From Candidatus Latescibacterota bacterium (GTDB lineage: Bacteria > Latescibacterota > UBA2968), in assembly GCA_965205975.1 (NCBI GenBank), contig OZ242195.1, forward strand, positions 3,808,001 to 3,872,000: a stretch of 64,000 nt of DNA. The letters are read 5' to 3'. A program made the translations under genes and the position numbers. Numbering within the stretch: the first letter of the stretch is position 1; every line of letters begins with the position of its first letter. Positions 20,657 to 40,290 of the stretch are shown here, one piece after another. The notes beneath the pieces were generated by a model. The model was not told the origin of the DNA. It did no database searches and saw nothing but the letters and a program-made list of their open reading frames with translations.

Positions 20657-20750
20657 AACAATTTTAGATATTGTTAAGATCAGTATTTTGGGTATATTTG
20701 ATTGTCCTCACCTTTCTCCCTGCGTCTAAGACGATAGGAGGATAACGCCC

Positions 20751-21560
20751 ATGCCAAATGCTACGTATCCTATTACGCTTAGAAATGCGACGCCAGAGAC
20801 TACCCCTTTGGGCGAATTGGCAAAACTGATTGAAAAATTAGATGTTGCCATCATTGAAACAGCTCGTGACCGCAACATAGAGTTGCCCGAAGATGAGGCT
20901 GTTGTCTCACTGGTAAACATTGAAAAGGGTAGCAATCGCCTCGTTTTTACTCTGGCACCTTTCATGTGGCCAATTCTCGCTGAATTAACCCATTCGATTG
21001 AAGAAGGAGATTTTGTCGCACTCCCCTCAAAAGCACATAATGCACTGTATGATATATCTCGTCAGGCAAAAAAACAACACTGGGACGTTTTGTTTCCAGA
21101 GCAACAGGGCCACAAGAACCAGGACCAGATGTATCATATTCAGAAAACCGAAATATCGACACAGCGACCAATAACGCCTCCAAAACCTCAATTCATTAAA
21201 GGCACAACCACGATTTTTGGTATGTGTGTGAGAGTTGGAGGAAAAACACCTAAGGTGGATCTATCATTGGCCAATCGCGATCGGTTGCTCCACTGTGAAA
21301 CGACCAGAGAGATTGCAGTTCGTTTGTCGCGTAGCCTCTATAAAAATGTCGCTTTATTCGGACAAGCTTTGTGGCATCCCGACACTTGGGAATTGGTCGA
21401 GTTCAAAGCTACAAAGATCGCCAATCAGGTATATGATGATTCACCTGTAAAAGCTCTTGAAGAAGTTTCTAAAGTCGTTGGCGATCAGTGGAAAGATGTT
21501 GATGTCGTGGAATTTGTCAATAATGTTCGTTCGGGTGATACGGGTCGGGATGGTGCTTAA
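20751..21560 (+). CDS. Hypothetical protein, partner of the PIN toxin
   Basis: 269 aa, AGGAGG RBS, 3 bp before the PIN gene; lower GC than flanks. Confidence 0.7.
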   Translation: MPNATYPITLRNATPETTPLGELAKLIEKLDVAIIETARDRNIELPEDEAVVSLVNIEKGSNRLVFTLAPFMWPILAELTHSIEEGDFVALPSKAHNALYDISRQAKKQHWDVLFPEQQGHKNQDQMYHIQKTEISTQRPITPPKPQFIKGTTTIFGMCVRVGGKTPKVDLSLANRDRLLHCETTREIAVRLSRSLYKNVALFGQALWHPDTWELVEFKATKIANQVYDDSPVKALEEVSKVVGDQWKDVDVVEFVNNVRSGDTGRDGA

Positions 21561-21563
21561 ATT

Positions 21564-22043
21564 ATGGTTTGTCTTGACACACACGTTATTATTTGGGGCA
21601 TTAAAGAGGAGGCAGCACCGGGTCAAGAAAATATGGTGCAACGTGCCAAAAGTTACATCAAACATCAGGTTAGTCAGGGAGTTGATTTAATGATCCCTGC
21701 ACCTGTTGTAGCCGAAGCACTGATACGTGGTGAAGTTGATCACCTGCGAACCATCCGAACCATTATTGAAAGTTCTTTTTTTATTTCTGCTTTTGATTCT
21801 CCTGCTGCTTTTTTGGCTGCAGAATTAGAACGAAGCCGGGGAGTCGTTGAATTACTCGAAGAGGGGCAAGTTTCACGTAGCCATATAAGAATTGACACCC
21901 AAATTGCTGCAATAGCGATCACCCAGAACGCGGACATGATCATATCTCATGACCCACATATGCGCACGGTCGCACAGGATCGCATTCAAGTGGTTGAAAT
22001 ACCAGATATCCCCGAGCAAGAAAATTTACAATTTGAGCAGTAG
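21564..22043 (+). CDS. PIN-domain (VapC-like) nuclease
   Basis: CLDTH, VVAE, DTQIAAIA, ISHD acidic PIN residues. Confidence 0.85.
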   Translation: MVCLDTHVIIWGIKEEAAPGQENMVQRAKSYIKHQVSQGVDLMIPAPVVAEALIRGEVDHLRTIRTIIESSFFISAFDSPAAFLAAELERSRGVVELLEEGQVSRSHIRIDTQIAAIAITQNADMIISHDPHMRTVAQDRIQVVEIPDIPEQENLQFEQ

Positions 22044-22057
22044 TGCCTTCCTATCCT

Positions 22058-25000
22058 CTATCCTACAGCCCACCCCTCTGAAAGCACCTCCGCCTGTCTC
22101 AAAACCGTAAGCGTCGCGCTGTCCGCTTTATCCGGCGGATACCCGTGCTTGCGCAGAATGCGCTTAACCAACCGGCGCAAATTCGCGCGCACATTCTCTC
22201 GCAGCGTCCAATCAATCGTCACATTGTCCCGCACAGTCCGCACCAATTCGCGGGCAATGGTGCGAAGCGTCTCATCGCCCAAAACTTGAACCGCACTATC
22301 ATTGGTCTCAAGCGCATCGTAAAAAGCCAGTTCATCCTCACTCATACCAAGACTTTCACCCCGCGCCTGAGCCTCGCGCATCTCCTTCCCCAGCTTAATC
22401 AACTCATCAATAATATACGCCGCCTCAATCGTGCGATTCTGGTAGCGATGGATAGTCTGCTCCAGCATATCGGCGAACGACCGCGCCTGCACCACATTCT
22501 TCCGCATGCGACTCGAAATCTCACCCTTGAGCAACTTCTCCAGCAACTCCACCGCGAGATTGCGCTGCGGCATCCCCCGCACCTCAGCCAAAAACTCGTC
22601 AGACAACACCGAAATATCCGGCTTGTCCAAACCCGCCGCCGCAAAAATATCCGTCACCTCGTCGGACGCCACTGCACGCGAAACAATCTGACGCACTGCC
22701 AGATCCAATTCCTCCTGAGGCCGCGCATCAACTGGCGCGCGCTTACCCAGCACCGACCGCACAGCTTGAAAAAACGCCACATCATCCCGAATACGCCGTG
22801 TCTCCTCGTGCGGCACAGCCAAGGCAAAAGCCTGCGACAATTCCCGAACCGCCTGCAAACAGCGATCCTTACCATCCCTCTGCGCCAGAATATGCTCCTG
22901 TGCCGCTGGCAACAAACCCAACGTCTCCGGAGGCGTACCAGTAGCCCATTTGGATCGATCAAACCCGTAAAATAAACCACAACAAATTTCGTACTTCTCC
23001 CGCAACAACACCACCGCTTCTTCCTGATTGAGCGCAGTCTTCCCCGTACCCCCGCTCTCGGTATAAGTCGCCAATGCGTCCTTGAGTTCTTGGGCAAGCC
23101 CCAGATAATCAACCACCAGACCACCCGGCTTATCCTTAAACACGCGGTTGACACGCGCAATAGCCTGCATCAACCCGTGCCCACGCATGGGCTTATCGAC
23201 GTACATCGTATGCAAACTGGGCGCGTCAAACCCCGTCAACCACATATCGCGCACCAGCACAATATTCAGCGGATCAGACGCATCGCGGAACCGCTGCGCC
23301 AGAGCCTCGCGCCGCGGCTTATTGCGAATATGCGGCTGCCAGTCACCCGGATCGGACGCAGAGCCAGTCATCACAACTTTGATATTCCCCCTATCATCAT
23401 CTTCATCATGCCATTCCGGACGCAAGCGCACCAGTTCCCGATAAAGGTCAATACATATCCGGCGACTCATACAAACAACCATCGCCTTGCCATCCAGCAC
23501 CTCAAGACGTTCCTCAAAATGGGCAACCATATCCTCGGCAAGAAGCCTCAACCGTTTCTCCGTACCCACAATTGCCTCTAATTGCGCCCATCTGGTCTTG
23601 AGTCTCTCCTTCCGCTCTACTTCCTCACCCTCTGTCGCCTCCTCAAAATCCGGATCAACCGTCGGTTTCTCTTGCACGTCCAATGACAGCCTCGCCAGAC
23701 GACTCTCGTAGTAAATCGGCACCGTAGCGCCATCCTCTACAGAACGCTGGATATCGTAAATACTGATATAATTGCCAAACACAGCGCGGGTATTCGCATC
23801 TTGCAACTCAATAGGTGTTCCGGTAAAACCAACAAAAGAAGCATTGGGCAGGGCATCGCGCATATGCCTCGCGAACCCATCGATAAAATCGTACTGGCTC
23901 CGGTGCGCCTCATCGGCGATAACCACAATATTACGCCGTTCCGAAAGCTCCGGATGGGTATCGCCCTTCTCCTCCGGAAAAAACTTCTGAATAGTCGTAA
24001 ACACCACGCCCCCTGACACCACAGAGAGTTTTTGACGTAAATCAGCGCGGTTGCTCGCCTGTGTTGGCGCTTGACGCAACAAATCTCGACAACGAGAAAA
24101 CGTACCAAAAAGCTGATCATCCAGATCATTGCGATCCGTCAAAACCACAATCGTCGGATTCTCCATCACCGGATCCCGGACAATAGCCCCCGCATAAAAA
24201 GCCATCGTCAAACTCTTACCCGAACCCTGCGTATGCCACACCACCCCAATCCGCCGATCACCCGGCGCACCTCCCGGCTGCTGGCCCGATTCATAGCGTC
24301 CACCCCCCTCGGCGACCCCACGCCCCGCCTGCTGCAACTCCACTGCACGCCGCGTCTCACCCACCGCCACCCGCACCGCGTGAAACTGATGATAACCCGC
24401 CATCTTCTTCATCAGCGCACCGCTGCCATCATCCTCAAAAACAACAAAATCGCGTACCAGCGAAAGAAAACGCCCGACATCGCAGACGCCTTCGAGCATC
24501 ACCTGCAATTCGGGCATATTGGAATCAGCCAGACCTTCACCTGAAATCGTACGCCAGGGCTTAAACCACTCCCGTCCTGCTGTCAACGTACCAACCCGCG
24601 CCTCCACCCCATCCGAAACCATCAAAGCCGCATTCATCGCAAACAGAGACGGCAACTCCGCCTTATACGTCTGAAGTTGCTGCCACGCCGTCCATATCGT
24701 GGCATCCTCATCCACCGGATTCTTGAGTTCAATAATCCCCAGAGGCAAGCCATTCACGAACAGCACAACATCCGGACGTCGGGTATTCTTATTCTCAGTA
24801 ACCGTAAACTGATTGACCGCGAGCCAGTCATTATTGGAGGGATCATCAAAATCGATAACCTTCACTTGCGCCCCACGCACACCCCCACCCGCATCCCGGT
24901 ACTCCACCGTAACACCATCCACAATCAAACGATGAAAAGCGCGATTGCGGAACGCCAGCGATGTACCCTCAAGACGAGTCAACTTGCGAAAAGCATCATC

Positions 25001-25618
25001 CAAAGCGCCCGCAGGAAGACCGGAATTGAGCCGCGCGAGCGCATCCTGCAATCGTCGCCTCAGAACCACATCTCCATAATCCGCTCGCTCTGCATCCAAC
25101 GTATCAGGAGCAATATCGGGACCATGGGCAACGCCCCAGCCGAGGTCCTCTAGATAGGTGAGGGCAATGTCTTCAACAACTGATTCAGTGAGGGATTGAG
25201 ATCTTCCGTTCGTATTCGCGGCTTGCCAAGTGTTGTTGTAAAGGGCATCAGATACGCGCATGACTGCCTGCGCTACACGAAGCACGGCTGTCTCCAGCGT
25301 ATCATTTACACTAGATCTGAGCACCAACTGGCCACTATAAAATTCTATACCGAGGGATCGGCATATTTCTTTGATTATCAAATTCTGTTGTAGCGATGGC
25401 TGAGTGTTTACCGATTGCATACGAAGCCAACCCAGAGCATCGCCGAAATCTGTGACAATATAGCCATTGTCGCGATCTAAAACGAACACATCCACTATGC
25501 CGCCATCAGGATACGTCAGCGGCGTTCGCACCCGCACCCCTTCTTGCGGAGCCGGTGAACATTCGAATCGCGACGACAGCATTTTGCTAATAGTGGCGCA
25601 GAGTTTGTCGGAGTTCAT
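22058..25618 (-). CDS. hsdR: Type I restriction subunit R with N-terminal DUF1828-like fusion
   Basis: PDVVLFVNG...IELK nuclease, [20 protein letters not shown]; ~140 extra N-terminal residues ([16 protein letters not shown]...TDFG) before SLTESVVE. Confidence 0.95.
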
Positions 25619-26064
25619 AACATCATTCCCCCTTGCGTCGGAGTCGGTTCGAGCATTATACCGGAATGTCGTAGATTTGCCTCGTCACAGAATTGCTTCC
25701 ACACCTCTACGGGACGGTTCCATGGTTCGGTTATATCTGCTGGCACGTATGCTTCCGTGTCTCGAAAGCCCTCCTGCCAGCGGTGTTTATGCATTTCACC
25801 CACAAGCTGGCCATCAGGGTTGCGATGGTCCGCCCCTAGATCAAGGGCATAGATTCTTCCCATTGTTCGGTGGATGATTGCATAAGATAACTTTCCCGAA
25901 AGTGGGTTGTACCAACCATTTACGAATATAGGATACCCAGAATCCGAGTTCACTTCCATCCTGAATCCCTTAGCCATCGGATGATCGTCATCTTCCCAGA
26001 CAATGTCTCCAGAAATTTCTTTGGTATCGTCTGATATAATTGCCTCAAATTCCTGCTGGGTCAT
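25615..26064 (-). CDS. Hypothetical protein, DUF6978-like
   Basis: [12 protein letters not shown]...HKH motif; ATGA overlap with the DUF1828-hsdR gene. Confidence 0.7.
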
Positions 26065-26066
26065 AG

Positions 26067-26141
26067 TTAGTGAGTTTCCTTCAAAAACCTTTCCACATCT
26101 TCAGCCCTCACCCTCAACTCACTCTATCACCATTTGGGTAA
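26067..26141 (-). pseudogene. Eroded hsdS 3'-end scar
   Basis: Reads LPKW**SELRVRAEDVERFLKETH*, aligning without gaps to the HsdS tail LPKLISGELRV. Confidence 0.6.
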
Positions 26142-26307
26142 TGAATGGAATCTCACGTTCAGATTCATGACGGTCTGGGATTTCAAGATCAGTCCCGCGT
26201 AGCATGTTGTCAATCAACCACTGCCCCATGGGTTTGTGAGGTTCGGAAAGGCGAGTCTTAGCTTCTGCAACGGTCCAGATCTGTTTGGATTTAGAACACC
26301 TCATCAT
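26119..26307 (-). pseudogene. Phd/YefM-like antitoxin with an apparent internal deletion
   Basis: WTVAEAKTRLSE (Phd N-terminus) joined directly to a C-terminal segment; the core is missing. Confidence 0.55.
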
Positions 26308-26475
26308 CAAGTCTCCAAAAAAAGTTAGTTCAATATAGATCACATCGGCCTTTCCTGCAAGACCGACACTGTTATAGGACACGACCAGTCTAAACCTTGG
26401 ATAAACTACTGACATTACACAAAAACCACCGCGGCAGCCACATGGGCAAGTGGTACATATCTTTCACATGACCGT

Positions 26476-26916
26476 CCATTCATGAAGCCACCTGAAAGGA
26501 TGGCCTCGGATGCGTAGTTACATCAGCGTATTCACACTGCCCGGACGCGCCCCATCGCTCGGTCGCCCAAAGCCGATTATCTTGCTGGCATGGTGGCCTT
26601 GAGCAAGTTGGTATATGAGTCTGAAACCATTTCTGCTATCATTTTCAAGGAGGGCATCATGGATCTCATCCGCGAATCATCTCTTTTTTAATCCCTTACC
26701 CAACAAAGCAGAGAGGAAAGTTTTGAGCAAGGAGGCAGGCAACGCGCCATTGAAGATCTTTTCGATGTACTGGAGATCCGATTTGATATGCCCGAAACAC
26801 ACATCCTATCTGCTCGCATTGCCGCCATCGAAGATTTGCAACGCCTCAGGCAGTTGCACCGTGCAGCGGTACAAGTGCCCAATCTCGACGCATTTCAGAG
26901 CGTGTTAGATGCGTGA
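26476..26916 (+). pseudogene. Remnant of an Rpn-like (recombination-promoting nuclease family) C-terminal region
   Basis: Frame PFMKPPERMASDA*LHQ...IRESSLF*...DVLEIRF...IEDLQRLRQLHRAAVQ with stops at 26515 and 26689. Confidence 0.6.
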
Positions 26917-26933
26917 TGTGATTTTTCAGGAAA

Positions 26934-28817
26934 TCATGTGTCATCGGCGTCGATATCGCGAAGTAATTGCTTCACCTCGTCCACTAAGTCCGTATCGTTG
27001 GCATTCTGCGCCAGTTCAAGCGCAGTCTCTAAGTCCTTCCGTGTCCCGTCATTTCGCCCCAATGCAACCTTCGCATTCCCTCGGTTGTAATATGCTTCGG
27101 CAAAGTCTGGTTTCAACCGAATCGCCTCATCATAATCAGCGATAGCGTACTCATGCTGGATTAATTTGTCCTTCGCAGCACCCCTATTGCAGTAAGCTTC
27201 AGCGTAGTCTGGTTCTAAAAGGATAGCTTCATCATAGTCAGCGATGGCATCTTCGTAACGGCCCAGATCGGCCTTTGTATCCCCCCGATTGCAGTAAGCG
27301 TCGGCATCATCCGGTTGCAATCGAATCGCCTCATCATAGTCAGCGATGGCATCTTCGTAGCGATCCTGTTCAGCCTTTGCATCCCCTCGATTGCAGTAAG
27401 CTTCAGCGTAGTCTGGCTTCAGCTGAATCGCCTCATCATAGTCAGCGATGGCATCTTCATAACGACCCAAGTCAGCATTCGCGATACCCCGGTTGTTGTA
27501 TGATCCGGCGTCGTCTGGTTCCAATCGAATCGCTTCATCATAGTCAGCGATGGCATCTTTGTAACGACCCTGTTCAGCATTCGAAATACCCCGGTTGTTG
27601 TAAAATCCAGACAAGTCCGGCTTCAGACCGATTGCCTTGTCATGGTCAGCTATAGCGTCTTCGTAGCGATCCAAGTCAACCTTCACACTCCCCCTATTAC
27701 TGTATGCCTCAGCGAAGTCTGGTTGCAGGCGGATCGCTTCATCATAGTCAGAGATGGCATCTTCGTATTGATCCAATGCGGCCTTCGCATTCCCTCTGTT
27801 GTTGTATGCCAGGAAGAAGTCTGGCTTCAATCGGATCGCTTCGTCAAAATCGACAATGGCATCCTCATGGTGGCCTAAGTCAGTCTTCGCAGATCCCCGA
27901 TTATAGTATGCATTGGCGTAGTCTGATTTCAACCGAATCGATTCATCATAGTCAGAGATGGCATCTTCGTTCCGATTCAGAACGGCCTTCGCATTTCCCC
28001 GGATGTTATATGCCTCGGCGAAGTCTGGCTTCAATCGGACCGCTTCGTCGCTGGCCAATAAGCTATCTTCCGGATTTTCATCCGAGAATAGATAGCTAAC
28101 AGAATACCAGGCTTTGGCAGCGAATTCACCGTCGCTTTCCTCCGCGACCAGGGCAACGGCACGCCATTTCTCGATTGCTTCGTCTGTCTTGCCTTGCTGC
28201 TCGAGAAAAACGGCCTGGACAATTGCCTTATCTATCGGCGATACCGTATATTTTTCGCCCTCGTTAGTAACGACCTTCCCCACTTCTTCAAGTTTATCGG
28301 CAACTGTTTCGGCGTTCATACGCCGATTAATCTTATCAATAGATTTACCCTCAAGTGCTACCGAAATAGGAGTCTCCAAACCTGATGAACTTTTTTCAAA
28401 AAATTGAATTTGTTTTTTAATTTCGGATTTGGCTTTTTCAACGCTATCGAGATCTCGGTGATCAACTCCTATTGTTCTCATTGGCCTGACATCAAAAGGA
28501 ATAGCCTCGACTTTGTCAATGATCTGTACGAGCGGCTTGCGGACGGCATGTCGAATGGCTAATTCATAAAAAACGTTGGGGTTCTGTCCTGTTAAATCGG
28601 CTATGACTAAAGGATCATCTACAACATGTCGAATTATCTGATTAGTAATAATACCTGGCTCAGCGATCTCGTCCGCACGAACAGCTTTGAAGCCACAAGT
28701 CTCCACTGCCGGACGAATAATGTGTTTTAAAACCTGATCGGATCGTTTGCGAATATCGGACTCTGGTTCGCCGATGGGCGCAATTACGAAACAAATCTTC
28801 TCGTTAGTATCTGCCAT
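26934..28817 (-). CDS. Nucleoside 2-deoxyribosyltransferase-like domain fused to ~11 TPR repeats
   Basis: CFVIAPIG...RADE...ADLTGQNPNVFYEL...PFDV, then 34-aa repeats AYxNRG...AIADYDEAIRLxPD. Confidence 0.85.
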   Translation of the reverse strand: MADTNEKICFVIAPIGEPESDIRKRSDQVLKHIIRPAVETCGFKAVRADEIAEPGIITNQIIRHVVDDPLVIADLTGQNPNVFYELAIRHAVRKPLVQIIDKVEAIPFDVRPMRTIGVDHRDLDSVEKAKSEIKKQIQFFEKSSSGLETPISVALEGKSIDKINRRMNAETVADKLEEVGKVVTNEGEKYTVSPIDKAIVQAVFLEQQGKTDEAIEKWRAVALVAEESDGEFAAKAWYSVSYLFSDENPEDSLLASDEAVRLKPDFAEAYNIRGNAKAVLNRNEDAISDYDESIRLKSDYANAYYNRGSAKTDLGHHEDAIVDFDEAIRLKPDFFLAYNNRGNAKAALDQYEDAISDYDEAIRLQPDFAEAYSNRGSVKVDLDRYEDAIADHDKAIGLKPDLSGFYNNRGISNAEQGRYKDAIADYDEAIRLEPDDAGSYNNRGIANADLGRYEDAIADYDEAIQLKPDYAEAYCNRGDAKAEQDRYEDAIADYDEAIRLQPDDADAYCNRGDTKADLGRYEDAIADYDEAILLEPDYAEAYCNRGAAKDKLIQHEYAIADYDEAIRLKPDFAEAYYNRGNAKVALGRNDGTRKDLETALELAQNANDTDLVDEVKQLLRDIDADDT

Positions 28818-28832
28818 GTTTATCTTATCTCT

Positions 28833-28958
28833 CTAATTCTCAGTTTCGTTCCTAACAATAGGCGTAGAGAATGTTAAGCGCAACATCCTCGACACCAGCC
28901 TTGGCAACAATGTATCGTGGGACAACTCGTTCAATATCGGCTTCGGTGATGGGGTCAT
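28833..28958 (-). other. Hybrid hsdR-start::hsdS-end junction ORF (41 aa)
   Basis: ATG ORF containing HDTLLPRLVSRMLR (8/14 identical to the local HsdS tail RDALLPKLISGELR); the shifted frame next to the ATG reads ITEADIE, like an HsdR start. Confidence 0.65.
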
Positions 28959-29835
28959 GACATATTCCTATGTCTTTGCCTGTGCGCCTACTTTTTCTCA
29001 ACTCTGTTGGTTTCTAAATTTTCGAGAAAATAAAATAACTGGTGAACCGTGAGTATGCCGATCACCGCGGATTTTTGATTGAACTTCTCCGCAGCAGCAA
29101 CACCATGCGCGACACTGTGCCTGGCGATGTCTGAGGCGTCAGGATTGAAATGCGCAAAATATACATCCTGAAGATAGTTAGAAAAACGATGTGGTAAGAG
29201 CAAGCTCTTATCATTTCCTATTTTAGAGGCCACTGCTGACTCCGTCAAATTTCTAGGAGAAGGATGCGACTGAGAGCCCAGACTGGTATGATGAGTACGT
29301 AGGATTCCTTCTATGCGAGGAAATAACAATCCAGTACAGCTCATATAGTCATCATCTTGAAACCGTTCGACAGCACGTTCAAGAATATCAATGTGAGGCA
29401 TGAATGAAGAGTGTTTACCCCAGCTATGCAGCATTTGTGATGTACGACTCTTAGTTTCGGAGACAATATCATCAAGATTTTCGTCTGGGTCCCAGCCAGA
29501 TTGAATATGATTTATCAAGGTGTCAATCATGTTATAGCTAAGCCCCATGAACGGGAACCATTGTGCGGAAAACAGGGCATCCCATTCAGCATCGGAGATG
29601 CTAAACCTTTCTTGAAATGTAACTTGACCTAAAACTGCGCTGATATCATATTGGCGTAGCGGAAGACTTGGCCCGCCGATGGGTTCGAAATCATAAAAAA
29701 GCCCCTTTCGCCATCCGACAGAAAATACAAATAAGACGCCAGCATCATCCGGTATCTGTACCCCGAGTTTGACGTCCTCTATATCAACAATGTCACCTTT
29801 TAGAACTTCTTCCCCTGCCTTCATTGACCTTGCTA

Positions 29836-31229
29836 GTGCATCGTGGCAAAAGTCATTGGTGTTATAGATTAAGGGGTCTTCCGGTATAGGTCCATTTAAA
29901 CGGTTTGGCCATGGTTTTGTTGAAAAAGGCAATGAAATCCAAAAGCGATTGCTGGAGGTCTTGGACAGAGGTAAAACTCCCTCTTTTGAGTAGGCGTCGC
30001 ACGAGAATAGAAAACCAGCATTCAATCTGATTGAGCCACGAGGCGTGTTTAGGGGTATAAACAAAGCGCACTCGGTGGGCTTGATTGCTGAGGAAGTCGG
30101 CCCGGGTTTGCATAGATTTTAGAATCCCGTATTTGCCTTTTTCCCCTAAATCGTCTTGAATGTCGCACACATCAGCCACCCATCGGACTAAGGCTTCCGA
30201 TTTATGGGTATTGAGTTGATCCACGACAAAGACCCACTCACCTTTTGGGTCTTGTGCAAAGGTCTGTTGGATGTGCGTCTTAAAATCTTTCTCTGTTCGT
30301 GTTAGGGATAAGGTTGGGGCAATCACCTGCCCTGTGGCGACTTCAAAATTGCCAATCAAGCAACAGGTGCCATGTCTTTTGTATTCAAACTCCTGATGTT
30401 CAACCCGTCCCTGCTTCATCGGTAGGGTGGGTTTGGCACGTTCTTTGGCCTGTATGCCCGTTTTTTCATCTGTGCTGATGACATGCACACCTTCTTCGTG
30501 AAGGTCAAGAGCAGATTGATATAAGGCACAGACCTTTTCACTTGCCTCGTAAAAGGCTTCTTTATCTTCATCAGGGGGACGCGCCCAATACCGGACTTGA
30601 TGCGGCTTAAGATCGGCCTCTTTTTAAAAAACGTCCCACACTGCGAACTGAAATATCAGGGACGATGCCGCGGGCGATGACTGCTTCACGCAAGACTTGA
30701 GGCGTCCAATGGCTGATGGGATACCCACACGCTTTGGGGGCTTCACAGGAGAGGGCCACAATCTTTGTGACCACCTGTGCCGAATACCTCACAGGCGTAC
30801 CTGGACGGGGCGCATCCGATAGGAGGGATAAGACCGCATCGGACAAGGCACGGCTATCGCCCTCGGCTTCCATCGCTTTGAGAGCCTCATAACCTGCCAG
30901 CCAACGCTTGCGCCAGGTAGAAACTGTCTTTGGATCTGCGCCGACTTGTGCGCTGACTTGACCGATGCCTAACCCTTCACTGCTTAACAGGATCATACGC
31001 GCACGGCGGGCATGGTCTTGGCGACTGGTATGGCGTTGGACAATGTGTTCTAAGACGCTACGTTGCATCACGCTGATGGGCAACGGGCTGGCTTTTTTGT
31101 AATAACCGGGCATGGACACCTCGATGAGACAGGCACTATAAACGGGATCGAATTTTATCTGAAGGCTTGGCGGACACACAAAGATAAGCAATGCTGATCA
31201 TACAAGGAACCTTTTTTGCCACGATGCAC
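29836..31229 (-). mobile_element. IS630-family insertion sequence (1394 bp)
   Basis: Perfect 16-bp terminal IR GTGCATCGTGGCAAAA; flanking TA duplication in a CTAG context. Confidence 0.95.
29862..31113 (-). CDS. IS630 transposase, two ORFs joined by a probable programmed frameshift
   Basis: HTH ORF 30607-31113 and DDE ORF (DEKTGIQA, DQLNTH, SWLNQIE); TTTTTTAAAAAG slippery run at ~30620-30631. Confidence 0.9.
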
Positions 31230-31497
31230 TAGACGAATATTCATGTGTATATCTAACTCGTTCACGTAAACATCTGCTTTACCGTCACGACGACAAATAG
31301 CAAGCAAGTGATCTACTTGCGAAGGGGAAGTCTGAGACGGCAATCGTTGCAGGATATCGTTGGGAAGACCTTCGAGTCGTTGAATAAAATGTTGACCGTC
31401 CTCAGTCGATGTGAATTCACGATAAGCTATCTGAGCTTCTTCACCCTCTTTGACAGATGAAAGAAGATAACCAGCTGGTGGATTTTCAAGGTCAATT

Positions 31498-31614
31498 TCA
31501 ACGGACACTTCCACCTCCTCTTACATGCAATTCTCCCGAAATGAGCTTCGGCAGTAGTACGTCACAAACAGACGGTATCTTTTTTACAACAGCCTCTGTG
31601 AATTGTGTACTCAT
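31498..31614 (-). other. Hybrid hsdR-start::hsdS-end junction ORF (38 aa)
   Basis: MSTQFTEAVV-KKIPSVC-DVLLPKLISGELHV-RGGGSVR*; compare local HsdR SLTESVV and HsdS DALLPKLISGELRV. Confidence 0.85.
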
Positions 31615-31984
31615 GGACCATGCTCTCCCTTGATCTAAGGAGATCCAATGCTAATTTTTCCGTCTTCATTTGTTGCCTGTTGAGAAAGCCATGTGACTAT
31701 TCGTTTAGCGATCTCATCGGCCTTCCCAGATTCCGTCCCAAACCGGATCAAGACGCGTTTACACGCGACCTTGATTCTCGCTTGAATCGGTTCTCGATTT
31801 CTCCAGTCCAAGGCCATATTCGTATCCACTGTAGCAAGCAGTGAGTCAATAAGTTGCTCTTTGCCAACTATGACCCTTGGGTTTACACCTTCTGATGTAA
31901 GGAATGTTTTCAATCCTGAGCGAAGAGTATCGAAGGTGCCATCATATACGGACAGAACTGCCGTGACAGGCCCTACCGCTTTCA

Positions 31985-33383
31985 TGTTATGCTTCAGATA
32001 GAAATGGACTTTTGTGGTGCATTGATAAGCTATAAATTGGGCTGTCCCCAAGGAGGAGTCCATGTCGAAGAAGCGTAAGCAATATTCTCCCGAAGAGAAG
32101 GTGTCGATTTTGCGTCGTCATCTGTTAGATGGCGTGCCCGTGTCAGATTTGTGTGATGCACACGGGATTCACCCGACGATGTTCTACCAGTGGCAGAAGG
32201 TGTTTTTCGAGCAAGGTACCTCAGCCTTTGCGCCAAAGCAGAGTGTGCATGAGAAACAGCAGGCGAGAAAGATTGCTGTCTTAGAGGCCAAATTGGCAAC
32301 AAAGAACGAAGTGTTGTCAGAACTGATGGAAGAGCACATTTTTCTAAAAAAAAGTCTTGGGGAGACCTGAGTCAACGTCCGATTTCGAGGGTCATTCGCG
32401 ATGCGGTGATTGATTTTGTGGTCCATTGGCACAAGCAAACCGGTATCTTTATCGGTCAGTTTTTATCCTTATTAGGGTTATCTACAAGCACATATTATGA
32501 CTGGAAAGCCCGGTATGGTGCGCCCAATGGCACTTATGGGTCACTGCCCAAGAGTTCCTGGCTCTTGGACTGGGAGAAGCAAGCCATTATCACTTATGCC
32601 ATAGCGCACCCCGACCAGGGGTATCGTCGTTTGGCGTATCAGATGATAGATGAAGATGTTGTAGCTGTTTCACCCAGTAGCGTGTATCGCGTGCTCAAAG
32701 GCGCCGATCTGCTTAGTCGAACTTTAAAAAAGGTCTCAAAGAAGGGGACAGGATTTGACCAGCCAACACGGGCACACCAGCACTGGCATGTGGATGTATC
32801 CTATTTGAATATCTGCGGGACCTTCTACTACTTATGTGCCCTTTTAGATGGCTATAGTCGCTTTCTCGTCCATTTTGAGATTCGAGAAGCGATGCGAGAA
32901 GCAGATGTCGAGATCATTATTCAAAGAGGCAGAGAAAAGTTCCCCAACGTCAGGCCGCGTATCATCTCGGACAATGGTCCACAGTTTATTGCCCTTGCCT
33001 TCAAGTCTTTTATCAGACACTGTGGGATGACCCATGTGCGCACTTCGCCGTTTTATCCGCAATCCAATGGCAAGATCGAGCGGTGGCACCAGTCGCTCAA
33101 GCGCGAGTGTATTCGTCCCAAAACACCGACGAATTTGGAGGAGGCGCGAGAAGTGGTTGCCAGATTTGTCGCGCATTACAACCACAAGAGATACCACGCC
33201 AGCATCGGGTATATCGCGCCTGTTGATAAACTGTGTGGTCGAGCACCACTTATTTTTCGAGAACGAAAACGCAAGTTGGCGCAAGCAAAATGCTTGCGTG
33301 CCCAACTCAGAGCCGTCAAACCCGTTGCCCATTTGTAGCTTAACTACAACACCCAAAATTCCAATTTACTTTGAACCATTACA
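31985..33383 (+). mobile_element. IS3-family insertion sequence (1399 bp)
   Basis: TG...CA ends, imperfect ~30-bp IR, 4-bp target duplication TTCA (31981-84 and 33384-87). Confidence 0.95.
32062..33338 (+). CDS. IS3 transposase OrfA/OrfB with -1 frameshift
   Basis: OrfA 32062-32370 (HTH); OrfB rve domain WHVD, SDNGPQF, SNGKIER; A8G slippery site 32346-32354. Confidence 0.93.
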
Positions 33384-34206
33384 TTCACGGGTGCAACAAA
33401 TGGCGTATCGTCGGATTCGGAAACTGTCATTTCTTCCTTTTCTTTTTCCTCCGTGGCTTCGTCCACAGCTACCGCAGAAACTACCTTAGCCGTCTCCAGT
33501 ACCGTAATGTAGGCATGTCGGTCAGTTCCATAGAGGAGCTGGCTGGGCTCGAGGCGCAGTTCGATAGCATCTTCTGGCGATCCTGTCGTGACAGAGAACA
33601 CGATAATTGGCCTGTCACCCTCTTCGTCAACCCGGACCCACACGCTTGCGTGTCGGTCAATGCGATCATTGTAGTGCTGGAAGGTCTCGTAGGATTCGTG
33701 TGTTGAGGACAGATCGGGATCCTTTCCCTCCAGTGCATTCAGCAAGATGCCCAGGATCGCATCGCCCACATGTAAGAAAGCCCGGGTGTAGTCAATCGTC
33801 AGGGAATCCAAGAAACCAAGCTTCCCATGAGCAACTGGACCAGTATCATTGCGCATCTTACTCAAGGCATCCGACAGTTTGGTGAATCCTGATAACACCG
33901 CGCCAAGTTTCGTCGCGCGTTTCTTCTTACTCAGCCCGAGGGCGTCAAGTGCCGCCACGAGTAGTTGGGTTGAGGTAGAGGTATTGGATGGCTCCGGGCG
34001 ACCAAACTCTATCAGAATTGTACGGCATACGCTCTCGATGAAAGACTTAACATGCTCGATCAATCCATGTGCGTTGTCGTAGAAGCATATAGCTAACGCG
34101 TCGTAACCATCTGCCAATGTCGGGGCATCAGGCCATCGCTGTTGTGAACGACGATAGTTGGGTGCAAGTGTATCGAGATTGTTCATTATTTTTTGCCTCT
34201 CAGAAA

Positions 34207-35508
34207 TCATACACTCTCTACTCGGAGTTCACCGGAAATGAGCTTGGGCAACAGCGCGTCACGCTGAGCGGCGAGAGTGCGGGCTTCTGCCGTGTTAGAT
34301 CGAATATGTTTATCCCACGATAGTGCTATTGATCCGAACTCTCTAACTACTTCGGACATTGGTTCTATCGTTTTCAAAGATTCGAATTGCGTTTTGTTGA
34401 TAGCACCGAACACTGTTCCCATATGCTCATACTGTTGAAGCTCTCGCTGTATTGCCCAAGCAAAATGGTATGTGTATGAACTCGAACCAGATTTGTGTCG
34501 TAGGGCTGCCACGCCACGTCCAATACAACACTGCTCCCAAGCCATGTTGATGTCTCCAACTGGTGCTCTGACACTAATCAGCGTATCGTTCGGTTCAGCA
34601 ACGCGGGTTGGAGCGGTACAGTATCTCCGTTTTTCGGGATAACGGAATCCAAAATCAGTTCGACCCTGGAAGAAAGGCATTCCTTCAGCGTGCTCATTAT
34701 AGGTGCTGCCAGGCGGTGATTGACCCATTGTAAGGTTGAAGCAATCGCCAAGTGCCTTCACCTCCCACCCTTCCGGTATCAGTCCCAATTCCGAGTCCAC
34801 GAGGCGGTCGGGAAATAGGTCGGCGAGGTGTTTTGGCAGACCGGGATCGCGGTCTTCCATTTTTGCGCGGACGGGGTCGAAATCGACGAACCACGATTTG
34901 AACAGGGCGCGGGCCATCTCTTCCAGCGTTTCGTTCATGCGGCGGTTTAACTCAATCTTGTCATCCAGTGTGCCGAGGATGTGGGCGATGGCGCGTTGTT
35001 CGGCTACGTCCATTGGTGCTTGTACATCGAATGATTCGATCATGCCCTTAGTCAGAGCATTTCTTGTTCCGCCAGAACCTGCCCATGACAAGAGCGTTGC
35101 CTGTATTTCGGGACTCACAAGAAAATAGCGCAGAAAGCGTGGCGACAGCTTATTTGGGTCCGGACGGATGATCGCGACGTGCTGATTCACGCGCGCTGGA
35201 AGTACATCTGGTGCAACCTGACATACCCGAGCTACCGAATCCCCAGTAATATTGAGCAAAACATCGTCAGCAAAGACCTCAACATTTTTTAGTTCAGTCG
35301 CCTGTTGCTGGTTGATAAACGCCAAACCATCATAACTGAATCCATTGTTGTAAACGTTTTGGCTTCTGATCAGCGCATAAGGCCCTTCCACCAAATAGAC
35401 CTCTTTTCCACCGCGCGGGGTCGCACCACTTCCAATTTTTGTACAAACGTCACCGAGACGCCGTGATACCCAACCATCATTCATCATAACCAACTCTTTC
35501 CTTATCAT
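34207..35508 (-). CDS. hsdS: Type I R-M specificity subunit
   Basis: Two TRDs with conserved EQRAIAHILGTLDDKIELN, IPEGW and RDALLPKLISGELRV. Confidence 0.95.
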   Translation of the reverse strand: MIRKELVMMNDGWVSRRLGDVCTKIGSGATPRGGKEVYLVEGPYALIRSQNVYNNGFSYDGLAFINQQQATELKNVEVFADDVLLNITGDSVARVCQVAPDVLPARVNQHVAIIRPDPNKLSPRFLRYFLVSPEIQATLLSWAGSGGTRNALTKGMIESFDVQAPMDVAEQRAIAHILGTLDDKIELNRRMNETLEEMARALFKSWFVDFDPVRAKMEDRDPGLPKHLADLFPDRLVDSELGLIPEGWEVKALGDCFNLTMGQSPPGSTYNEHAEGMPFFQGRTDFGFRYPEKRRYCTAPTRVAEPNDTLISVRAPVGDINMAWEQCCIGRGVAALRHKSGSSSYTYHFAWAIQRELQQYEHMGTVFGAINKTQFESLKTIEPMSEVVREFGSIALSWDKHIRSNTAEARTLAAQRDALLPKLISGELRVESV

Positions 35509-35511
35509 CCT

Positions 35512-35817
35512 CTAAGCCATCACTTGCCGAGGTTTCACGCGCTCAGCAATGCGCTCGCCCACATCGATCTCAGCTTGACGAAGCTCGTAGGTCTTCTGCA
35601 GGTTCAGCCAGACCTGCGGCGGCGTCCCAAAATAGCGTGCTAACCTGAGTGCAATATCAGCGGTTACACTCTGCTGACCATTGAGGATCGCAGTGACGCA
35701 GCCTGGCGACACGTCCAGTGCGTTAGCCAGTACGTTAGCTGACAGGCCGAGTGTTTCGAGTTCCTCGCCCAATATCTCACCAGGATGCACAGGTCTCATA
35801 CCGTTTTTCACATTCAA
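35512..35817 (-). CDS. higA: HigA-family antitoxin, orphan
   Basis: MRPVHPGEIL...ALRLARYFGT...WLNLQ..Y. Confidence 0.9.
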   Translation of the reverse strand: MNVKNGMRPVHPGEILGEELETLGLSANVLANALDVSPGCVTAILNGQQSVTADIALRLARYFGTPPQVWLNLQKTYELRQAEIDVGERIAERVKPRQVMA

Positions 35818-35835
35818 GTTCTTACTCCCTGATTG

Positions 35836-37398
35836 CTATAGCTCATTGGGTGCCCCAAATCCGAGCGTCTTCAGATTTTCGTCAATCGCAGCATCCAGCC
35901 TATTCGCCTCGGCCTGTTGCTCTTGCCATTGCGCGACCAGACGCTTCATCTTCTCCTCAAAAGGCTCGCCATCGTCCTCTTGCGGCTCGGCACCCACATA
36001 GCGACCGGGCGTGAGTATATGACTGTGCCGACGAACTTCCTCCAGCGCAGCACCCTTGCAAAAACCGGGCACATCGTCATAATCCACACCAGACCGCCAT
36101 GCGTGGTAAGTGTCCGAAATACGGGCAATATCCTCCTCTGCCAATTCCCGTTGCGTGCGATCTACCATATACCCCAGCTTGCGCGCATCGATAAACAGGA
36201 CCTCACCCCGACGATCGCGGAATCTTCCATTATGCCGGTCACGCGCCAGAAACCAGAGACACGCGGGAATCTGTGTCGATCTGAAAAGCTGCCCCGGCAA
36301 AGCCACCATACAATCCACCAGATCCGCCTCAATCAAATTCTTGCGTATCTCGCCCTCACCGGACTGATTGGACGACATCGAGCCATTAGCCAGCACAAAA
36401 CCCGCTGTACCAGTAGGCGAAAGATGATGCACAATATGTTGCACCCACGCAAAATTGGCATTCCGCACAGGCGGTACGCCATACTGCCAGCGCTGATCCT
36501 CGTGCAACCGATCACCACCCCAATCCGAAACATTAAACGGAGGATTGGCGAGAATATAATCCGCCCGCATATCGGGATAGCGGTCATTGTGAAACGTATC
36601 CCCGTGCGCGATCTGGCCTTCGATCCCCCGAATCGCCAGATTCATCCTCGCCAATCGCCACGTCGTATAATTAGACTCCTGTCCATAAATAGAAATATCA
36701 GCCCGCGCAGTGCCACCATTGCCATTCCCGCTCTGATGCGCCTGAATAAACGCGATAGACTGCACGAACATACCCGAAGAACCACAACACGGATCATAGA
36801 CGCGCCCGTTATACGGTTCTAACATCTCCACCAGCAAATTCACCACACAGCGCGGCGTATAAAACTCGCCCCCCTTGCGCCCTTCAGCCAGAGCAAACTG
36901 ACTCAAAAAATATTCATAAACCTGGCCCAACACATCCTGAGCACGCGCCTCTGAATCGCCAATATCAATATTGCTGATCAAGTCAATAACCTGACCCAGA
37001 CGGGTCTGATCCAATGCCTCTCGGGCATAATCCTTGGGCAGCACATTCTTCAATGCCTCATTATCGCGCTCAATAGCCACCATCGCGTCATCCACCTTTT
37101 GTCCAATTGTCGATTGCCTTGCAGCAGCCTGAAGAATCGCCCAGCGCGCCTCGGGTGGCACCCAGAAAATATTCTGAGCGCGGTACTCATCCGGATCCTC
37201 GGGATCAGCACCCTCATCCCGCTCCAACTCCAATTGCGCGTGCGCTTCCTGGAAAGCATCGGAAATATACTTCAGAAAAATCAGACCGAGCACAACATGC
37301 TTGTACTCCGCAGCATCCATACTGCCGCGCAATGCATCGGCCATCAGCCACAATTCCGCCTCGTAATTAGCAGGTCTATCAGCACTTGTTTTCGTCAT
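35836..37398 (-). CDS. hsdM: Type I R-M methyltransferase subunit
   Basis: [28 protein letters not shown]. Confidence 0.97.
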
Positions 37399-37445
37399 CC
37401 TTTACTCCTTTTCACCTGTTGAAACCATGGCTGTTAGCGATCAGC

Positions 37446-37507
37446 GGGCGGGCACAGGGGCCCGCCCCTACAATCTGGATCGCGGCTCAACACCATGCCG
37501 CGATGAC
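37446..37507. repeat. GTAG REP plus family B palindrome
   Basis: GGGCGGGCAC...GCCCCTAC followed by CTGGATCGCGG...CCGCGATGAC. Confidence 0.8.
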
Positions 37508-37556
37508 AAGAGATGCTCGTCACGCCTCTGTGTTATTCCTATTGTCACATTGATAA

Positions 37557-39296
37557 TTACGGCTTAAGCGGCTGATACTCGACCAGTGCTGATCGGCCTA
37601 AGATATCGATAATGCGAACAAGCATCTCTGTTCCTTCCGCATCTGTCAGTCGCAGGTCTTCACCGGGAAGGAAGTGAACCGGTTGCTGCTCGCCCTGATT
37701 AATGGCGATGTTGGAGGCGTACAGGTAGGTTCTATCGAGTGTATCGCGTTTGGGATTCAGCCTGCCCTTGAGTCCCGGAAGGGAACCAGTCGCCTCTGGA
37801 AAAATGATTGCACCGCCGCCGGGAAGTGGCTTCATTTCAACAGCGAGCACACCTCCTGAGGGCATCCACTCTTGTTCGCAGTGCGCGGCAAAGCCGTGGG
37901 CAGCGACGAACACAGTCATCGGCAAATCAACCGTATGCAGGCCAACAATGGCCTCGCCCAGCGTATCCGTCTTAGCTTGTCTCCAGGTCTTGTTTGGGAA
38001 CAGCACCAGTACCTCCGCATCGGCAAGCGGCTGGTCATCGGCACGCACGGTAATGAGCACGCGGGCTGGACTCGGCTCGGTAGAGGCCGCCGGTAGCGTA
38101 ACGCGAAGATCCGCTCCCCCAACCAGATCGAACCGCGGCAAACGCCCGGCGAGTTCGCGTGTTTCTCTCCGGATGATAGGGACACCATCGCCGCGTCGCT
38201 CCATGATGAAAAGCCGACCACCAACTCCCTGAATACCACTTGTCGGCATCCGCCCCAGAACCGAGGCAAGCACCTCGTTGCGCGTCGCCTGCCGATATTC
38301 CAACTCATCTACTGTCAGACGATTGGCTAATGCACCCGGCGACTGGATTTCCACCCGGTCAGCGAACATCGACAAACGAATCCGGCTACCGCGTATCGAA
38401 TAGTCGCGATGGACCACGGCATTGACGAGAGCCTCGAACAGAGCTTCTGCGCTGTACTGCGGCAAATCCATGCGGGCCGGATCTTTGTAGGCACCGACGC
38501 GCATATTACGCACGGCAAAGGCGACCGCTTCGGCAATTTGTCGGTTGAGAGGCCCAGTAATCGTCTGGGTGTCGAGTTGCCCGGAGGCGCGATCAATACC
38601 TCGGTAATGGGTGGCCGTGATGCAGGCATTGGGAAGCCATTCCTCCGGGGTATGGCTGCAAAAGAGAAGGCCAGCGACAGTCGCTCGCACTACACCGTGT
38701 TCGTCCTGTCCAAGAAGGCCCATTTTTTCCAATGCTGTTTCCGGATCGTCCCTGCCTTCAACACTCAACAACGGTTTCCACAGGGCTTCGTCCAGCGTAC
38801 CCAATCCGGTATCGGGCACCGGCTGCTTGTCGAACCAGAGGAACCTCGCCTGCCCCCGCTGCTGCGCCAGACGCAGTCGCTCATCGCTCGTCATCCTCCG
38901 TTTTGACCCGCCTACCCGAACATAACTACCACCCGGACTATCATGCTGCGATTCTCCCTGCGGCACTTCAACCAGCAGCAACCGCTTGCCATCCAGTTCT
39001 CTGTGATAGGTACTAATGCGAACCGCCGGTTTGATAGCATCGGAACTAACCTCAACCAGAACAGCATCCAGCGCGACGATTTGTTCACGCGACAGGCCCT
39101 GAATCTCACCTTCATCAGTGACCCCACAGAGCAACACGCCGCCATTCGCGTTGGCAAAAGCCGCGATCTCATCGGCCAGATCATCGCGTCGGGGACTTGT
39201 GGGCCGGTTCCCGGAAAACGCGATCTGCTTAAATTCCCATTGGCTGTCCTCGGCCAGTCGCAGTTGGCGCGCAATATCCTGGTCGCTATAGTTCAT
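37557..39296 (-). CDS. Schlafen/AlbA_2 + HATPase_c_4 protein with atypical C-terminal region
   Basis: EDSQWEFK, IAAFANANGG..L.GVTD, EALVNAVVHRDY, ERRGDG; GGAGG RBS before the ATG at 39296. Confidence 0.88.
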   Translation of the reverse strand: MNYSDQDIARQLRLAEDSQWEFKQIAFSGNRPTSPRRDDLADEIAAFANANGGVLLCGVTDEGEIQGLSREQIVALDAVLVEVSSDAIKPAVRISTYHRELDGKRLLLVEVPQGESQHDSPGGSYVRVGGSKRRMTSDERLRLAQQRGQARFLWFDKQPVPDTGLGTLDEALWKPLLSVEGRDDPETALEKMGLLGQDEHGVVRATVAGLLFCSHTPEEWLPNACITATHYRGIDRASGQLDTQTITGPLNRQIAEAVAFAVRNMRVGAYKDPARMDLPQYSAEALFEALVNAVVHRDYSIRGSRIRLSMFADRVEIQSPGALANRLTVDELEYRQATRNEVLASVLGRMPTSGIQGVGGRLFIMERRGDGVPIIRRETRELAGRLPRFDLVGGADLRVTLPAASTEPSPARVLITVRADDQPLADAEVLVLFPNKTWRQAKTDTLGEAIVGLHTVDLPMTVFVAAHGFAAHCEQEWMPSGGVLAVEMKPLPGGGAIIFPEATGSLPGLKGRLNPKRDTLDRTYLYASNIAINQGEQQPVHFLPGEDLRLTDAEGTEMLVRIIDILGRSALVEYQPLKP

Positions 39297-39361
39297 CGGG
39301 CACCTCCAAAATTGGCACTCGTTTTCGTCATCGGTTAGCTGCTCGGGACGGTCAAAAATCA

Positions 39362-39420
39362 CTGGATCGCGGCTCAACATCATACCGCGATGACGGGACG
39401 GCACAGGGGCCGTCCCCTAC
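39362..39420. repeat. Family B palindrome plus GTAG REP
   Basis: CTGGATCGCGG...CCGCGATGAC then GGGACGGCAC...GTCCCCTAC. Confidence 0.8.
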
Positions 39421-39459
39421 GACGGGGTACAAACCGTTCTTTACGCTCAGGTCTTAGCC

Positions 39460-40290
39460 TTATTCTCTCTTCACCTGCGGCTCTCTCGAGAGCGGAACCT
39501 GCGGTTGCACAATGCGGCGGCGTTGGGGGGTGAGGCGTTCCAGCAACTCTGGCGACGGCTGGTATCCGTGCCGGAAATTCCCCCACGAAGGCCCGTAGCG
39601 ATACACCGCGATACGCCGCGTCCCCGCATTCATCCGCTTTGCCGACCCGTGTGAAAGTCCATCTACAAAAACGAGCGCATCGCCCGCCTTCATAAACACC
39701 TCAATCGCGCCCACCGTACCCTCCACAGACCTGTCCTCTCCCATCCTCTGCTCATCGTAAAACGGATGCCTGAAATTCGCCTTGTGGCTCCCCGGAATCA
39801 ACATCGTCCCGCCATCGCCCGGACCGATATCCGTCAGCGCCATCAGCACATTGACCTGCCCGCACATAAACCGCCCCCCATGATACCGAAACTGATTCCT
39901 CATAATCGGCGGAAACCCACCCGAATGCAACCCAATCGCCTCGCCCGGCTCGCGAAAATTGGCCAAACACTCATCGATAAACATAGGCCCGTGATGGTGA
40001 TCAAACGTCCCCTCCGCCCCGATAAAAAGCTTCACATGCTCAAACCACGACGGATGATCAATCAGCTTCTCAAACGGCTCGCCCGCCTCGTAAATCTGTT
40101 GATAATTGATCCCCGACGTCACATCGCCATACGCATGACCCTGAACATACCCATACCACTCCCCCGGCTTCAGCGCGGGAATCTCATCCAAACAACCGTT
40201 CAACGCCTGAACCTCATCCGTCGTCAGCGCCCCCTCCATAAGCAGGTACCCGCGCAGGTCAAACAAATAAACATCGAGATCTGGAACCAT
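39460..40290 (-). CDS. PhyH-family Fe(II)/2OG oxygenase, HxG variant
   Basis: YLFDLRGY, LHSGG, IPGSHK, LSHGS...RR. Confidence 0.85.
   Translation of the reverse strand: MVPDLDVYLFDLRGYLLMEGALTTDEVQALNGCLDEIPALKPGEWYGYVQGHAYGDVTSGINYQQIYEAGEPFEKLIDHPSWFEHVKLFIGAEGTFDHHHGPMFIDECLANFREPGEAIGLHSGGFPPIMRNQFRYHGGRFMCGQVNVLMALTDIGPGDGGTMLIPGSHKANFRHPFYDEQRMGEDRSVEGTVGAIEVFMKAGDALVFVDGLSHGSAKRMNAGTRRIAVYRYGPSWGNFRHGYQPSPELLERLTPQRRRIVQPQVPLSREPQVKRE

Follow-up and report, generated by a model that had tools for sequence, protein, structure and literature searches.

Scars of hsdS ends and hsdR starts between stacked defence-type genes of a type I restriction-modification operon

How do several defence-type genes come to be stacked between hsdS and hsdR of a single type I restriction-modification (R-M) operon, and what do the short hsd-like sequences between them record? 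This question is raised by a stretch of 64,000 nucleotides of a Candidatus Latescibacterota bacterium (assembly GCA_965205975.1, contig OZ242195.1, forward-strand positions 3,808,001 to 3,872,000; the whole stretch is called the window here), which sits in a 5.56-Mb single-contig genome. In the operon of the window, hsdM, hsdS, and hsdR are all present and co-oriented, and the minus-strand order is hsdM, higA, hsdS, an Abi_C gene, scar 1, a HEPN gene, scar 2, an NDT-TPR gene, Rpn-like and Phd-like debris, scar 3, DUF6978, DUF1828, and hsdR. A sequence-only reading had taken this order and the scar peptides for an integron-like array of units, each with an hsdS tail, a cargo gene, and an hsdR head from a different operon, and both the order and the peptides were indeed found where it had placed them. 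Judged from comparison with related loci, the scars are real and widespread traces, apparently not described before, of the exchange and stacking of defence cargo.

Remnants of hsd gene ends in the window and in related loci

DNA profiles were built from true hsdS ends and true hsdR starts and then run over hsdS-hsdR intervals with a match cut-off of 25 bits; we call an hsdR-start remnant a head and an hsdS-end remnant a tail. The larger scan had 133 loci as input, surveyed with flanks limited to 10-19 kb, and 97 loci from several phyla were kept after dropping 11 without a usable hsdR start, 10 duplicates, and 15 without a full hsdS in reach (loci carry L numbers and genomes G numbers below). 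In these 97 intervals (339,702 nt) the forward strand gave 80 head and 22 tail matches, 102 in total, against no head and no tail on the reverse strand and 0.7 heads plus 0.7 tails per shuffle, so that the scars score far above shuffled DNA. Scars were borne by 56/97 loci, namely 24/38 in the host phylum and 32/59 outside Latescibacterota, and their number rose with interval length (rho 0.63 over the 97 loci, a value that kinship among loci overstates). After merging, 56/72 head scars started no more than 3 nt from the start codon, head remnants ended at scattered points between 18 and 209 nt, and the starts of the tail remnants spanned model positions 0 to 90; the longest remnants comprised 74 HsdR codons and 41 HsdS codons. 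A detectable tail followed only 9/56 head scars, and the claim that an hsdS end precedes each cargo is therefore not general. The similarity of head scars to the hsdR of their own locus gave no clear signal, ranking third or better in 14/41.

Within the window, the alignments indicate that scars 1 and 2 are true fusions of an hsdR start to an hsdS end. The tail of scar 1 reached 49-50 bits with the hsdS-end DNA profile. Its head is weak alone (about 12 bits); when the DNA upstream of it is included, L118 stands out among 112 with a score of 48 at its true hsdR start (28 for the runner-up), and in this locus an Abi_C homologue directly precedes hsdR. Scar 2 has a head of 28.5-29.5 bits and a tail of 32-35 bits in different frames, and this tail can be aligned to the genuine hsdS end found in front of NDT-TPR in L055. 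A second hsdR-like match in scar 2 (21.8 bits) was dropped, as the L055 hsdS tail accounts for it. Scar 3 had been read as a third hsdS 3' end, of which only half stands: its first half belongs to the 3' end of a Phd-like remnant and matches the end of the Phd gene in L035/L054 at 87%, and the other half is probably an hsdS end. Its last ~55 nt aligned to the true hsdS end of L141 with a score of 38, against a null maximum of 26 in 1,892 random pieces, and its position matches that in L078/L190, where a clear head/tail fusion precedes the same cassette; scar 3 stayed below 16 bits in the DNA profile scan and scored negatively with an ungapped protein matrix. Identity to the resident tail is 28/39 bases for one scar tail and 21/39 for the other, the two agree at 21/39, and true tails have a median of 26/39. 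Since they are thus as divergent from the resident tail as true tails are from one another, they are not local duplications, as the sequence-only reading had argued. Promoter and terminator scans stayed at chance level (16 vs 15.7; 16 vs 13.2).

We also considered that the scars might be chance resemblances or come from a chimeric assembly of strain variants. Scar 3 and the scar 1 head are weak on their own, and the whole array was spanned by no single short-read contig. The forward excess over reverse strand and shuffles, given above, speaks against chance. Against a chimera, short-read contigs from three runs of one study, possibly of the source sample, bridged every scar with 0 differences (scar 1, 31204-32012; scar 2, 28777-29801; scar 3, 25597-26471; hsdS end, 33354-34791), which excludes one at the junctions, and the same junctions recur in other genomes. 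This explanation is left with a negligible probability. A fourth run, from a different study, contained parts of the array only. The runs also held joints that skip parts of the region (22091-25248, 25279-25567, 25625-27773, and 35829-39497), which fit co-occurring relatives resembling L204, or near-empty sites, and not circles; no circle-type joint was seen among the 15 of 24 contig joints that were shown.

Comparison of loci further showed what appears to be the exchangeable unit: tails accompany the downstream cargo and heads the upstream cargo, which supports the stacking of units from different operons. The true hsdS end before the TPR gene in L054 aligns with the internal tails that precede this gene in L031 and L032, and the head after Abi_C is common to the window and L032, though the next cargo differs. 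In L118 (Terriglobia, Acidobacteriota) Abi_C is the sole hsdS-hsdR cargo, interrupted by a 1.6-kb insertion, whereas the HEPN gene was never found solo, so the expectation of solo cargo elsewhere held for the former and not for the latter. Association of the cargo with hsd genes elsewhere was the rule: both Abi_C homologues found (2/2) lie at hsd genes, HEPN homologues lie near hsd genes in 10/12 loci (directly after the hsdS end in L092 and L102), and in 13/16 loci with a DUF6978 homologue an hsd match lies no farther than 1.5 kb away. In L098 and L099 an hsdR start from another type I family stands before the HEPN gene, in L099 as an in-frame fusion to it; scars are thus not confined to one type I family.

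The hsdS end had been proposed as a recombination anchor, and it proved to be an exchange zone between the second target recognition domain (TRD2) and the first cargo, which, as far as alignments can tell, reassort across the ~55-nt conserved tail. When loci sharing TRD2 were aligned pairwise, 36/42 alignments ended no more than 25 nt from the end of the conserved tail (2 entered the cargo and 4 stopped earlier), and when loci shared the first cargo, 8/12 alignments started 26-75 nt inside hsdS. Moreover, L031 and L034 have a common variable C-terminal extension and cargo with different TRD2, and L034 and L054 a common TRD2 with different extensions, a sharing pattern that places crossovers inside the hsdS coding tail. 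The arrays of relatives varied in cargo number and order, as had been anticipated, down to the empty 44-nt interval of L179. Their cargo included Gabija, PDC-S65, S14, S02, S11, S32, M02, PD-T4-7, helicase-DUF2290, and TIR genes, and 12/51 cargo representatives had no Pfam match. L036:8371-10758 and its homologues (L039, L042, L045, L052) form a cargo family of ~760 aa, directly after hsdS or a scar and without a Pfam, PADLOC, or NCBIfam match, which is a candidate new defence gene. Remnants of the hsdM start and end flank AlbA-type cargo in L036, L039, L040, and L042, which suggests that the same stacking occurs around hsdM.

How the array may have been built

The reading that we favour, and hold to be slightly on the probable side, is that homologous exchange at hsd ends and rare additions with a single anchor built the array. 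On this view the interval is the place where a type I R-M operon family that spans phyla keeps its cargo, and the scars record its filling. Single cargo genes fit tightly within hsdS-hsdR, so a transferable piece carries an hsdS tail in front and an hsdR head behind. Most turnover, as the comparison of loci shows, is replacement, in which cargo and TRD2 are exchanged against each other by crossovers in the ~55-nt conserved hsdS tail and in hsdR. Occasionally an incoming piece may be anchored by homology on one side only, in hsdM/hsdS or in the hsdR body, and its other end, too short to anchor, may be joined illegitimately near a resident gene end. In this way the new cargo would come in addition to the old, and a short remnant (a head, a tail, or both fused) would be left behind. 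Such a step would be homology-facilitated illegitimate recombination (HFIR; background in PMC6382021) by general recombination, which needs no integrase. Existing junctions are inherited and undergo further recombination, and insertion sequence (IS) insertion and deletion later erode them.

The same head/tail fusions with scattered breakpoints are predicted if whole operons were first set in tandem, by single crossover of a circle or by unequal exchange, and the hsdR-hsdM-hsdS block between cargos was then deleted, so that nothing but the gene ends overlapping the stops and starts of the cargo survived. Large deletions leaving hsd ends do occur in L204 and L205; in G032 hsdR is followed by another piece of hsdR (residues 17-223), and L039 has a 199-codon hsdM start. 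However, an intermediate of this course was found in none of the 97 intervals: there was no hsdM piece, no locus with two full hsdS, and no remnant above 74 codons, even though the identity of many scars to true heads is still 80-96% (the count covers the flanks of 10-19 kb and the loci with a full hsdS in reach). The short remnants and the lack of hsdM pieces and second hsdS genes favour a one-step event, and we consider the tandem course a serious possibility with clearly less than an even chance. Both it and HFIR-type addition are general recombination.

An integron-like system would instead be site-specific, acting in trans to move circles of tail, cargo, and head at sites in the hsd ends. 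The units are modular and co-oriented, and six tyrosine-recombinase matches lie elsewhere in the genome. The nearest (PF00589, C1:3942513) is about 95 kb from the island, and a search of the genome gave no serine resolvase match. Furthermore, 15 candidate head/tail joints fell into 14 different registers, the spread of ends is continuous, and circle-type joints were missing from the contig joints shown. A shared Ala-Ala-Leu-codon 'pseudo-att' site of head and tail was rejected because the joints have no common register. Scattered joints without a linked recombinase largely refute site specificity and fit one-sided anchoring with an illegitimate joint; age polarity was not significant either. 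The integron-like character proposed in the sequence-only reading was therefore abandoned, and we regard such a system as very unlikely.

Rpn proteins promote recombination, and the Rpn/DUF4351-like gene in the array could accordingly be thought to promote RecA-independent cargo insertion. A copy or remnant occurs in 8 arrays of the genus, and the Atlas name of the family is Rpn-like. The gene was not found in the other 89/97 intervals, 51 of them scar-bearing; it lies on the opposite strand in the array, and its 18 matches, the window remnant included, are scattered over the genome. This role is very unlikely, and the filling of the interval can do without it. The family also occurs inside the type I locus of the genome near C1:4.28 Mb.

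Several results weigh against one-sided, HFIR-type addition. Microhomology at 10 head/tail joints was not clearly enriched, with a mean of 1.2 nt exact match vs 0.69 nt at random joints and a single 6-nt case, and no age polarity of statistical significance was seen (tails 3/4, heads 9/14). Six other type I loci of the genome gave no clear scar above the null in a weak test with single-sequence queries. In favour of the uptake of incoming linear DNA, the genome has comEC and dprA, but these are present in 10/14 control genomes too. Deletions in the lineage leave gene-end remnants as well: 30 codons of the hsdS tail and some 40 nt of the hsdR end remain in L204, and the head in L047 has an internal deletion, so that short scars are possible without HFIR. 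Finally, longer hsdM remnants (74-199 codons) lie outside the interval in L036, L039, and L040.

Cargo genes and setting of the island

The features of the window are collected in Table 1. Cargo of the interval comes from defence-associated families (Abi_C, PDC-M24, HEPN fold, and NDT/TIR fold), from which an anti-phage function may be inferred. Only the NDT-TPR and DUF6978 cargo are intact in this strain. The sequence-only reading had overlooked two IS elements, 2.8 kb in total and each with 4 near-identical genome copies: an IS3-family element splits the Abi_C gene, a single 382-aa frame in L032, and an IS630-family element splits the HEPN gene, an uninterrupted 381-aa frame in L092. Also overlooked was that the half-length DUF1828 runs in frame into HsdR; the same fusion is seen in L031, L033, L092, and L190 and is recurrent in two families. 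The AlbA_2/RecG-C-type gene is variable cargo of the same island, and its position differs among relatives. The Abi_C cargo ends in a domain resembling the HsdR C-terminal domain (PF11867; window 31635-31984, L032, L118), by which the protein might bind the R-M complex or imitate it. A search for Abi_C in metagenome contigs confirmed nothing.

Table 1. Features of the R-M island in the window
Feature	Position	Strand	Support or remark
AlbA_2 / RecG-C-type ATPase gene	37557..39404	-	Pfam PF04326, PF13749; upstream of hsdM
hsdM	35836..37398	-	PF02384, PF12161; PADLOC MTase_I
HigA-type antitoxin in hsdM/hsdS gap	35512..35817	-	TIGR02607 above cut-off
hsdS, intact	34207..35508	-	PF01420
Conserved last ~60 nt of hsdS, exchange zone	about 34207-34275	-	Homology switch points
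Abi_C cargo, 5' part, IS-broken	33384..34210	-	PF14355; 95% to L032 residues 1-268 of 382
IS3-family element, 4-bp target duplication	31985..33383	+	4 genome copies
Abi_C cargo, 3' part with T1RH-like_C domain	31635..31984	-	PF11867; 84% to L032 residues 267-382
Scar 1, hsdR start (about 40 nt) joined to hsdS 3' end	31496..31614	-	
HEPN-fold cargo, 5' part	31229..31514	-	68% to intact 381-aa L092 homologue
IS630-family element	29833..31228	-	PF13358, PF13565; 4 genome copies
HEPN-fold cargo, 3' part with RxxxxH motif	28988..29832	-	71% to L092
Scar 2, hsdR start (28952-28929) joined to decayed hsdS 3' end (from ~28916)	28818..28958	-	
NDT/TIR-like domain and TPR repeats, intact 627-aa cargo	26934..28817	-	TPR Pfams; fold matches
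Rpn/DUF4351-like multi-copy gene remnant	26476..26913	+ (opposite strand)	77% to L054 copy residues 153-302
Phd-like antitoxin remnant with internal deletion	26140..26376	-	PIN partner present in L035 missing
Scar 3, probable hsdS extreme 3' end, heavily eroded	26067..26120	-	
DUF6978	25615..26064	-	PADLOC PDC-M24A
Half-length DUF1828, in-frame fusion to HsdR	25202..25618	-	PDC-M24B positions 3-127 of 256
hsdR, full length, without own start codon	22058..25201	-	PF04313, PF18766, PF11867

The earlier labels HEPN and NDT had no Pfam support, and sequence searches named neither domain, while their folds support both identities moderately. In the HEPN gene, R340/H345 (R-x4-H) are invariant in 64 homologues, and the model of the L092 homologue matched HEPN domains with middling Z values of 5.5-6.4. 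The NDT-TPR model, with a predicted local distance difference test (pLDDT) score of 66, resembled the folds of NDT, MilB, and TIR domains, with a lowest E of 6.5e-5.

The host of this type I R-M operon is probably Ca. Latescibacterota. The six closest HsdR records belong to this phylum (89-93% identity), and further records with 71-79% identity are mostly from Dehalococcoidia, Binatia, Nitrospirales, Acidobacteriota, Alphaproteobacteria, and others; a plasmid search with the HsdR start gave 665 records, all below 60% identity. The whole R-M island (window 20660-39460) occupies a fixed site flanked by two convergent putative phyH-like genes, which is empty (<200 bp) in 5 other members of the genus (G008, G003, G016, G001, G011) and holds 4-22 kb in 9 others. 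AlbA, higA, the tail of hsdS, a single small cargo, part of DUF1828, and ~40 nt from the end of hsdR are what remains of the island in L204 (G007:C43:13300-18000), and contigs in three runs show skipping joints similar to it. A 269-aa unknown gene and a PIN-domain gene (window 20751-22043, plus strand), convergent on hsdR, are found in L204 too. A short repeated intergenic element at 37444-37507 and 39341-39420, which shows a very high contig depth and numerous loose ends, is probably a dispersed repeat. At least 7 further type I R-M loci lie near C1 0.21, 0.73, 1.86, 1.95, 2.09, 3.13, and 4.28 Mb, several with 3-11 kb of cargo within the hsdS-hsdR interval.

Relation to known systems and meaning

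That defence genes are embedded in type I R-M operons is already documented. Payne et al. (bioRxiv 10.1101/2024.01.29.577857) described PDC systems by 'guilt-by-embedding', Ronin is another account of embedded cargo (bioRxiv 10.1101/2023.04.06.535777), the RptR paper (PMC12255303) places DarTG2 between hsdS and hsdR at a site called a potential recombination hotspot, and a review (PMC12707154) covers PrrC and the immigration control region. As in these operons, and as with PrrC in EcoprrI, a known embedded defence gene, the window has co-oriented defence-type cargo in its hsdS-hsdR interval. The available portions of the embedded-cargo papers (Payne et al.; RptR) give no account of junction remnants or of stepwise cargo addition: the words 'recombination' and 'remnant' have 0 matches in the Payne text, which puts forward the idea of a 'genomic sink' and whose Discussion leaves open how cargo enters and accumulates. 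Scars are likewise not mentioned in the accessible parts of PMC12829572 and bioRxiv 10.1101/2022.09.01.506293. Our literature search found no paper on hsd-end scars, most subscription journals and bioRxiv supplements (e.g. Payne Figure S8) lying outside it.

The closest published analogue is found in toxin-immunity arrays. For type VI secretion system (T6SS) effector-immunity arrays of Vibrio cholerae and for Rhs C-terminal displacement, the text available from Kirchberger et al. (PMC5361080) proposes an HFIR-like mechanism. To the extent that it describes them, these arrays resemble the window in being integrase-free, in combining frequent homologous replacement with rare anchored illegitimate insertion, and in holding gene-end remnants. 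There a new module displaces the effector and immunity genes are kept, whereas in the window the core genes are whole and defence genes are added; the window further differs in having anchors on both sides and in related operons that span phyla. Exchange of TRDs, or domain movement, in hsdS is known at conserved repeats flanking the TRDs (PMC3077401), and the same C-terminal conserved segment is the switch point in the family of the window. TRD exchange shuffles recognition domains, and the crossover in the window family also exchanges the downstream genes. With integrons, whose features are partly summarised in PMC5361080, the window shares a tandem, co-oriented, and variable cargo with junction sequences; unlike them, it has no linked integrase or fixed site, its junctions are coding leftovers of variable length, and polarity is not significant. 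By this analogy the array works like toxin-immunity displacement arrays and not like an integron, and it is largely decayed in this strain.

The surprise is limited, as the mechanism amounts to general recombination, for which toxin-immunity arrays offer a published analogue. A bolder view is that there is an integrase-free cassette system across phyla, formed by the hsdS tail and hsdR head, with coding sequence acting also as a ~55-nt exchange site, retained scars providing translation signals and new landing sites, and preferential entry of new defence genes at the hsdS end. We regard it as rather doubtful; if true, scar-bounded units would be a direct catalogue of exchangeable defence cassettes. 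Altogether, the scars would provide a readable footprint of, and a testable mechanism for, the entry of cargo that earlier work on embedding left open. As they mark cassette boundaries, they may help to pick out unknown defence genes, and at the switch points one short coding segment links changes in R-M specificity (TRD2) with changes in back-up defence.

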